62,855 nucleotides of DNA from contig CALKWQ010000054.1 in NCBI GenBank assembly GCA_938003925.1, positions 1 through 62,855 on the forward strand, read 5' to 3'. Position 1 is the first letter of the stretch, and the number at the start of each line of letters is the position of its first letter. A program made the translations under genes and the position numbers. Source of the stretch: an uncultured bacterium. Its GTDB lineage: Bacteria; Patescibacteriota; Patescibacteriia; Patescibacteriales; UBA12465. This document shows, piece after piece, positions 25,210 through 26,367 of the stretch. The notes beneath the pieces were generated by a model, which worked only from the letters and a program-made list of their open reading frames with translations, was not told where the DNA came from and made no database searches.

Positions 25210-26367
25210 ATGTCCGGATTTAAATTACAAGTTGATAGTCATCGTTGTCGTAAAGGTAGGATTAAAACTGCTCACGGTTATTTGTCGACCCCATTTTTTA
25301 TGCCGGATGCAACCAGGGCTTTTGTTAAAGGCAATACTGTGGATGATGTTCGTAGAGCCCAGACGGAGGCAATGGTAGTTAATACTTTTCATCTTTATTT
25401 GCAGCCAGGCAGGGAATTGATTAAAAAAGCTGGCGGTGTGCATAGTTTTATGGATTGGTCACTACCGCTACTGTCTGATTCGGGAGGTTTTCAGGTTTTT
25501 TCACTGATTCATCGTGCTAAAGGCATGGGGAAGATAGATGATGATAAGGTGTCTTTTAAATCGCCATTAGATGGTTCTAGCCATGAGTTGACACCAGAAA
25601 AATCTATTCAGATTCAGTTTGATTTAGGTGTCGATATGATGGTCTGCTTGGATGACTGCCCACCTAATGACTGGCCTTATGATGATTTAGCGGTCGCAGT
25701 CAAGCGCAGTTTAGCTTGGGCAGCTCGTTGTAAGCAGGAGTATCAAAGACAATTAAAGAAAAGGGGGATTACTGCCAAGAAGAGGCCGTTGTTATTTGCG
25801 GTCGTTCAGGGTGGTGATTATGAAGATTTACGTCATTTTTGTGCACAGGAATTAGTTAAGATTGGCTTTGATGGTTATGGTTTTGGTGCACGCCCAGTGG
25901 ATAAAGACGGTAATTTTTTAGCCGCCACTTTATACAAAACCGCTTCTTTTCTACCAACAGATTCATTGCGCTTCGCTCTCGGTATCGGGACTCCCGAAGA
26001 TATCTATCGTTGTTATTTGATGGGCTGGGACATGTTTGACTGCGTGATTCCCACCAGAGAAGGGCGTCACGGCAAGTTATTTTATTTTAAACGTGGTTTT
26101 AAGGATTTTAAAATTCCTGCTGGTAAAGTAGGCGCTATCAGTAAATTCCCCTCTTTTTACGAGACCAAAAACATTAGTAACGCTGCTTTTGCTCGTGATT
26201 TTTCTCCTATTAACGCTGAGAGCTCTCTGCCGGAATTGCGTCAGTATAGTAAAGCTTTTTTACACCATTTATTTCGTCTTAAGGAGCCTTTGGGGCAAAA
26301 ATTAGCAAGTTTAAATAATCTAGAATTTTATAATCTTTTAATGCAAAAATTACGCCGTTGCCGATAA
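25210..26367 (+). CDS. tgt: tRNA-guanine transglycosylase, atypical
   Basis: TPFFMP, VNTFHLYLQPG, LSDSGGFQVFSL, LDDCP, VVQGG, LGIGTPEDI, DMFDCVIPTR. Zinc ligands absent. Confidence 0.92.
   Translation: MSGFKLQVDSHRCRKGRIKTAHGYLSTPFFMPDATRAFVKGNTVDDVRRAQTEAMVVNTFHLYLQPGRELIKKAGGVHSFMDWSLPLLSDSGGFQVFSLIHRAKGMGKIDDDKVSFKSPLDGSSHELTPEKSIQIQFDLGVDMMVCLDDCPPNDWPYDDLAVAVKRSLAWAARCKQEYQRQLKKRGITAKKRPLLFAVVQGGDYEDLRHFCAQELVKIGFDGYGFGARPVDKDGNFLAATLYKTASFLPTDSLRFALGIGTPEDIYRCYLMGWDMFDCVIPTREGRHGKLFYFKRGFKDFKIPAGKVGAISKFPSFYETKNISNAAFARDFSPINAESSLPELRQYSKAFLHHLFRLKEPLGQKLASLNNLEFYNLLMQKLRRCR

Follow-up and report, generated by a model that had tools for sequence, protein, structure and literature searches.

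Textbooks present Tgt as a zinc metalloenzyme, and it is also a drug target. The four ligands of its structural zinc site (CxCxxC...H) are described as absolutely conserved across three domains (PMC3074131), and the enzyme is treated as a zinc metalloprotein in this and other work (PMC3074131; PMC9894224). Base recognition in the Z. mobilis enzyme has been described in terms of a peptide switch: in the preQ1 complex, the Leu231/Ala232 carbonyl points into the pocket and the NH is bonded to Glu235, whereas in the guanine complex the peptide is flipped, so that the NH points inward and protonated Glu235 bonds the carbonyl (PMC3660597). An Ala232Ser substitution at this switch lowered kcat about 100-fold (PMC3660597), and mutants of E. 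coli Cys145, the equivalent of Z. mobilis Cys158, showed an 868- to 2460-fold increase in the Km for preQ1 (PMC3074131). The queuine-salvaging bacterial TGTs described in PMC11570991 carry a GG[LS][AS]G loop and come from tgt-only genomes. The substrate of QueA and QueG/H is preQ1-tRNA, and direct queuine users lack these enzymes (PMC11130926); the requirement of QueA for the aminomethyl group of preQ1-tRNA is given there and is established pathway knowledge. In the literature searched, whose coverage was incomplete, no account of a zinc-less Tgt or of an Arg-Pro pocket was found.

The window (the whole stretch of 62,855 nucleotides analyzed here) contains an open reading frame at 25210..26367 on the forward strand, encoding 385 amino acids plus a stop codon. 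The product matched the Pfam TGT family (PF01702) with 335.7 bits and the NCBIfam equivalog for bacterial Tgt (TIGR00430) with 337.4 bits, exceeding the cut-off of 306.75, and the frame is a full-length bacterial Tgt. Identity as DpdA or an archaeosine TGT was rejected because the archaeosine TGT model (TIGR00432) reached only 70 of the 350 bits set as its cut-off and there is no dpd or archaeal context. The nearest proteins are labeled in databases as Tgt of Patescibacteria, Falkowbacteria, or Saccharimonadales, and the relative of highest identity (P0001) shares 96% with the query. The host genome (1.2 Mb in 66 contigs, rated 100% complete) was searched for a second TGT-family gene and none was found, so a second, zinc-bearing copy or heterodimer partner was rejected as well. 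The neighbors of tgt encode a DUF11-like surface protein (upstream, with a 4-nt gap), pyruvate kinase, and enolase, and no que gene was found among them. An AlphaFold model built with 43 homologues had a pLDDT of 88.9 and a pTM of 0.89, with values of 94-97 in the former zinc segment; AlphaFold ignores metals, so this confidence is evidence of the fold and not of a zinc-free state. The top structural matches of the model in Foldseek were Z. mobilis TGT (TM 0.85, E about 1e-35), and the query is accordingly predicted to have the TIM barrel and C-terminal subdomain of the family. Sequence, fold, and catalytic residues all identify the query as a Tgt, and it fails two features usually held to be defining.

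The first of these is the zinc site. In HMMER alignments of the former zinc-site segment (residues 333-371; 26206..26322, forward strand), PINAESSLPELRQY of the query falls opposite PLDPECDCYTCRNY of E. coli TGT and PLDSECHCAVCQKW of Z. mobilis TGT, and LASLNNLEFY falls opposite NTIHNLRYY and MTEHNIAFY, respectively. These alignments equate Z. mobilis C318, C320, C323, and H349 with S338, L340, L343, and N369; the structural CxCxxC...H site is therefore absent, with Ser, Leu, Leu, and Asn in its place. The initial annotation had stated that all three cysteines and the histidine were replaced, within a segment that it placed, correctly, at 26206-26330. It had also suggested comparison with the Zymomonas enzyme; that alignment, to which E. 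coli was added, bore out the loss of the ligands and displayed the altered pocket loop discussed below. The Cys triad is missing in 120/120 of the closest database relatives (64-96% identity). Within an alignment of 43 sequences with a mean column identity of 70%, S338 and L343 do not vary and E342 and N369 hardly do. Two further positions track the zinc-less state: N335, inside the former zinc segment, and E372, just past it (26323-26325). The aromatic residues of the dimer interface are kept, with Y346, F350, and H353 corresponding to Z. mobilis W326, Y330, and H333 and identical to the E. coli residues. Zinc could still be held by alternative ligands, given that H352/H353 and C384 are present in the C-terminal region and that a histidine occupies the fourth ligand position in ~17 of 121 sequences (the query and 120 homologues). 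However, the HHL motif is also conserved in zinc-bearing TGTs, where it is not a ligand, C384 is not conserved in the 43-sequence alignment, and what is conserved is the Ser/Leu/Leu/Asn set rather than any group of three or four Cys/His residues, which makes this explanation highly improbable.

The second feature is the pocket loop, G224-F-G-A-R-P-V-D-K232 (25879..25905, forward strand), which replaces V-G-G-L-A-V-G-E. The gapless alignment of GYAVGGLAVGE with GYGFGARPVDK gives G230A, L231R, A232P, G234D, and E235K in Z. mobilis numbering, with V233 kept. A remodeled specificity loop had been claimed in the initial annotation, and the pattern G.GARP[VI]D in 120/120 of the nearest proteins substantiates it. 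The presence of both changes throughout these relatives, together with the invariant replacement residues, argues against chance or sequence error. The rest of the active site is conventional. Asp90 (Z. mobilis Asp102), in the LSDSGGFQ motif (25477..25479), is conserved, as are Gln200 (Gln203; 25807..25809) and the catalytic nucleophile Asp277 (Asp280; 26038..26040) in DMFDCV. Asp148-Asp149-Cys150 (25651..25659) align with Z. mobilis Asp156, Glu157, and Cys158, so that neither the base-binding Asp nor the Cys selective for preQ1 has been lost (all on the forward strand). The catalytic Asp motifs are thus intact, as had been asserted (D90, D148, and D277 by alignment), and every side-chain contact of the base pocket is retained (D90, D148, C150, Q200, V230, and D277).

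These residues bear on whether the protein is a decaying or noncatalytic Tgt, such as a pseudoenzyme or an accessory subunit like QTRT2. In favor of that view, Chong et al. reportedly found in 1995 that ligand mutants of E. coli Tgt lose both zinc and activity. Against it, the catalytic residues are all intact in what is the sole TGT gene of the host genome, QueA and QueH are retained, and the sequence is strongly conserved over >120 clusters. Comparison with genomes of the same genus gave a dN of 0.16-0.29 for tgt, including a value of 0.17; dS was saturated, so these values can be read only as a dN far below dS. A noncatalytic role is hardly credible on this evidence, and the enzyme is very probably active, in line with the earlier expectation, in view of its single copy, its constraint, and the retention of QueA and QueH.

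The loop changes fall directly on the switch. Pro229 takes the place of Z. mobilis Ala232 and Lys232 that of Glu235; Arg228 precedes Pro229. Given these replacements, the sequence predicts that the Leu231/Ala232 peptide switch could not work as described. Proline has no amide hydrogen, so the residue-228 carbonyl is probably fixed toward the pocket. The simplest reading is that this carbonyl is permanently inward, which is probably the preQ1-accepting state. Since Ala232Ser cost about 100-fold in kcat, an Arg-Pro segment could alter kinetics or selectivity in ways beyond what gene content reveals. A proline at the switch position also challenges the need for the Leu231/Ala232 flip in passing from guanine to preQ1.

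The spread of both changes was followed in a search of 1.84 billion representatives, from which the best 150 matches were classified and 134 full-length rows were placed on a tree. Zinc-less GARP sequences, the query among them, form a clade with full support. Branching next to it, within the clade labeled 98, are Tgts that combine GGR[PH] loops with CCCH, one of them a Moranbacteria protein. All of these belong to the clade labeled 96 (38 representatives), in which GGWP.D-type loops predominate and zinc sites are mostly intact. These Pro loops in zinc-bearing relatives indicate that the pocket change is older than, and independent of, zinc loss. On the tree of 134 representatives, at least 15 changes of zinc state can be counted. 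An even sample of the phylum comprised 151 genomes, 134 of them with a TGT (this tally includes the unpublished genome G150, whose sequence was not used), and the CCCH set was missing in 24/131 (18%) of the Patescibacteria Tgts that were fetched and classified (loci L035-L134). These zinc-less proteins have at least five pocket-loop contexts (canonical, GGVANGG, GGELRD, GGW.., and other). Several Patescibacteria TGT genes (for example G016, G092, G034, G070, and G113; L115-L134) gave a Pfam match in two to three pieces within one frame of 420-509 aa, indicating that large stretches are inserted around profile positions ~90-100 and ~165-230. The frequency of zinc-less Tgts in the phylum would fit a genome-wide economy of zinc as the cause of the loss, an explanation that leaves the function of the enzyme aside. 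This explanation is not supported, because the ribosomal proteins L33, L31, and L36 of the host genome retain their Cys zinc-ribbon motifs, and we consider it unlikely.

A closer view came from 301 genomes of the window's class (loci L135-L194). A Tgt at least 53% identical to the query occurs in 21 other genomes of this sample; the 20 that were fetched all have GA/G-R/S/M-P/H loops, and two of them (G405 and G219) have CCCH. Among 40 other class members, CCCH was found in 20, and most of the remaining 20 combine S-x-hydrophobic-x-x-L...N with the canonical GGLAVGE pocket. Canonical-pocket zinc-less Tgts occur in genomes that have QueA and QueH (for example G228, G249, G313, G160, and G173), so zinc loss does not imply a new substrate. 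The initial annotation had coupled the loss of zinc to the change of pocket; each occurs alone in close relatives, some of which combine GGR[PH] or GAR[H] loops with an intact CCCH site, and the two are separable.

Zinc-less Tgts of either pocket type have a five-position signature in common (N335, S338, L343, N369, and E372), at positions that are D, C, C, H, and R or another residue in the zinc forms. Trees were built from the barrel (residues 10-290, loop removed) and from 59 C-terminal columns with the ligand positions removed. The barrel tree places all GAR-type sequences, two zinc-bearing ones included, in one clade labeled 100, and a single origin of all zinc-less Tgts was rejected on these data (AU p = 0.00018; groups named post hoc). 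The C-terminal tree brings all zinc-less sequences together (SH-aLRT 90), and monophyly of the GAR type was not rejected on its 59 columns (AU p = 0.32). The two trees disagree, and the zinc-less module may have arisen by repeated parallel loss converging on one structural solution or by transfer of the C-terminal module through recombination. A further feature, which went unmentioned in the initial annotation, is a 28-aa insertion (residues 293-320; 26086..26169, forward strand) that lengthens a β-hairpin and appears as a break in the alignment. It is the fast-evolving part of the protein, with a dN of 0.35-0.69 against same-genus genomes, and relatives have between 7 and 41 aa at this site. 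Such variability and rapid evolution indicate no link between the insertion and zinc loss, and the insertion was rejected as a structural substitute for zinc, the zinc-less relatives themselves spanning 7-41 aa.

The host genome encodes all four GUN tRNAs, Asn(GUU), Asp(GUC), His(GUG), and Tyr(GUA). It was examined for que genes and transporters, a check that had been proposed with the initial annotation, and contains QueA (433 bits) and QueH (190 bits). QueF, QueG, and QueD were not found in the genome, the search for QueC returned only a 19-bit PP-loop match, and neither of the known preQ1 importers, YhhQ/Vut_1 and QueT, was found. The genome therefore cannot make preQ0 or preQ1, and some 7-deazaguanine must be salvaged. 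Tgt with QueA and QueH in the absence of the synthesis genes is the profile of a preQ1 salvager in the scheme of PMC11130926. Relatives with a GAR[PH] pocket were scored in 15 genomes from five families (f1, f84, f85, f88, and f122): QueA was present in 15/15 and QueH in 14/15, with a fragment in the remaining one, the two genes were adjacent in several, and a real QueC was found in 0/15. Six other GAR[PH]-pocket genomes, from families f86 and f120, have neither QueA nor QueH, which shows that this pocket does not always come with the full pathway. Pro replaces the preQ1-selective Cys158 in five of these six (G431, G405, G151, and G219 of f86 and G186 of f120; loci L147-L151), and such genomes may be tgt-only users of another base or may stop at preQ1-tRNA.

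Two features of the que genes were observed in passing. The host queA lies directly downstream of ruvB (contig C22; L002:1495-3603, minus strand), and tgt is on another contig. The ruvB-queA order is the classic Firmicutes arrangement. QueH of the host genome makes up the last 175 aa of a protein of 537 aa (C5:33184-34800 region; L004:1495-3111, minus strand), of which the N-terminal ~360 aa match the membrane MraY/WecA-like glycosyltransferase family 4 (PF00953, 103.7 bits). The four other family members (G279, G436, G351, and G317) all carry QueH in the same long frame of 522-539 aa, compared with some 180-220 aa for most QueH frames elsewhere, which suggests a conserved GT4-QueH fusion anchored in the membrane.

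Gene content also bears on the identity of the inserted base. The initial annotation had suggested that the pocket takes a base other than preQ1, such as queuine used directly, as in Chlamydia or eukaryotic TGT. A genome that must salvage, because it cannot make preQ0 or preQ1, and a noncanonical pocket loop are both compatible with that suggestion. Nevertheless, QueA and QueH would be useless after queuine insertion and are present both here and in the relatives (15/15 and 14-15/15), the loop reads GARPVD and not GG[LS][AS]G, and the queuine-blocking Cys158 and Val233 are retained as C150 and V230; the salvagers published in PMC11570991, moreover, encode only tgt. Direct use of queuine is thus very unlikely, and ordinary preQ1 specificity, which had been named as the outcome that would speak against it, is the one favored by the genome context. 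A second possibility is that the Arg-Pro pocket inserts preQ0 or another 7-deazaguanine, or that its discrimination between guanine and preQ1 is markedly changed. Pro at Z. mobilis position 232 and Lys at 235 abolish the described switch, the Ala and Arg ahead of Pro229 change the loop as well, the GG[WR]P-type loop marks a distinct subfamily of 38 representative clusters (the clade labeled 96), and some subfamily members occur in genomes without QueA. On the other hand, the side-chain contacts to the preQ1 core are all kept, the host genome has no QueF to reduce preQ0, and QueA needs the aminomethyl group of preQ1-tRNA (PMC11130926). A shifted specificity of this kind is rather improbable.

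Collectively, these results make it likely that the query is a functional Tgt that inserts salvaged preQ1, without zinc and without the peptide switch; we infer the substrate, the zinc independence, and the locked carbonyl from gene content and alignment. Tgt would exchange G34 of tRNA-Asn, -Asp, -His, and -Tyr for environmental preQ1, after which QueA and QueH would complete queuosine on the tRNA. The enzyme would work without the structural zinc ion, its C-terminal subdomain being stabilized by conserved residues other than metal ligands (N335, S338, the hydrophobic residue at position 340, L343, N369, and E372), and the Arg-Pro segment in place of Leu-Ala would keep the carbonyl inward for the aminomethyl group of preQ1. 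A broader proposal is more tentative, and on present evidence somewhat doubtful: that a large Tgt subfamily has dispensed with both zinc and the Leu231/Ala232-Glu235 switch, with its pocket locked for preQ1, with altered discrimination or a base not yet considered, and with a C-terminal module that was possibly recombined. If so, the altered discrimination between guanine and preQ1 would be that of a scavenger adapted to traces of preQ1. Natural, conserved zinc-free Tgts would mean that the fold does not require the metal, and they offer a ready comparison for what stabilizes the C-terminal subdomain, the dimer interface, and tRNA binding. The occurrence of Tgt, QueA, and QueH without preQ1 synthesis points to a dependence of Patescibacteria on neighbors or hosts for preQ1, which would be a concrete metabolic link for these symbionts.

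Compared with known systems, the query is closest in general design to the E. coli and Z. mobilis Tgt (EC 2.4.2.29), with which it shares ~36% identity, its length, its fold (TM 0.85), the catalytic Asp pair, the base-binding Asp, Gln, Cys, and Val, the dimer-interface aromatics, and the partnership with QueA and QueH. It differs from them in lacking the CxCxxC...H zinc site, in having GARPVDK in place of GGLAVGE, with neither the Ala232 amide nor Glu235, and in a 28-aa variable insertion ahead of the C-terminal subdomain. TGT of the Chlamydia trachomatis type and eukaryotic QTRT1 resemble it in that their hosts are likewise unable to make the base. Those enzymes, however, have GG[LS][AS]G (Val233 to Gly) and Val for Cys158, whereas the query keeps Val230 and Cys150, and they retain the zinc site that the query has lost; the genomes described for them in PMC11570991 lack QueA or QueG/H, whereas the query genome has QueA and QueH. 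The nearest zinc-bearing relatives, for example Moranbacteria MBP6889092.1 (the cluster of P0121) and P0122, are 51-54% identical in the barrel clade labeled 98 and have a GG[WR]P.D loop with Pro at the switch position, as in the query, but unlike the query they keep all four zinc ligands. Conversely, the canonical-pocket zinc-less Tgts (for example G228, G249, G313, and G160), most of them accompanied by QueA and QueH, have the same C-terminal signature as the query on a barrel that is only 45-51% identical.
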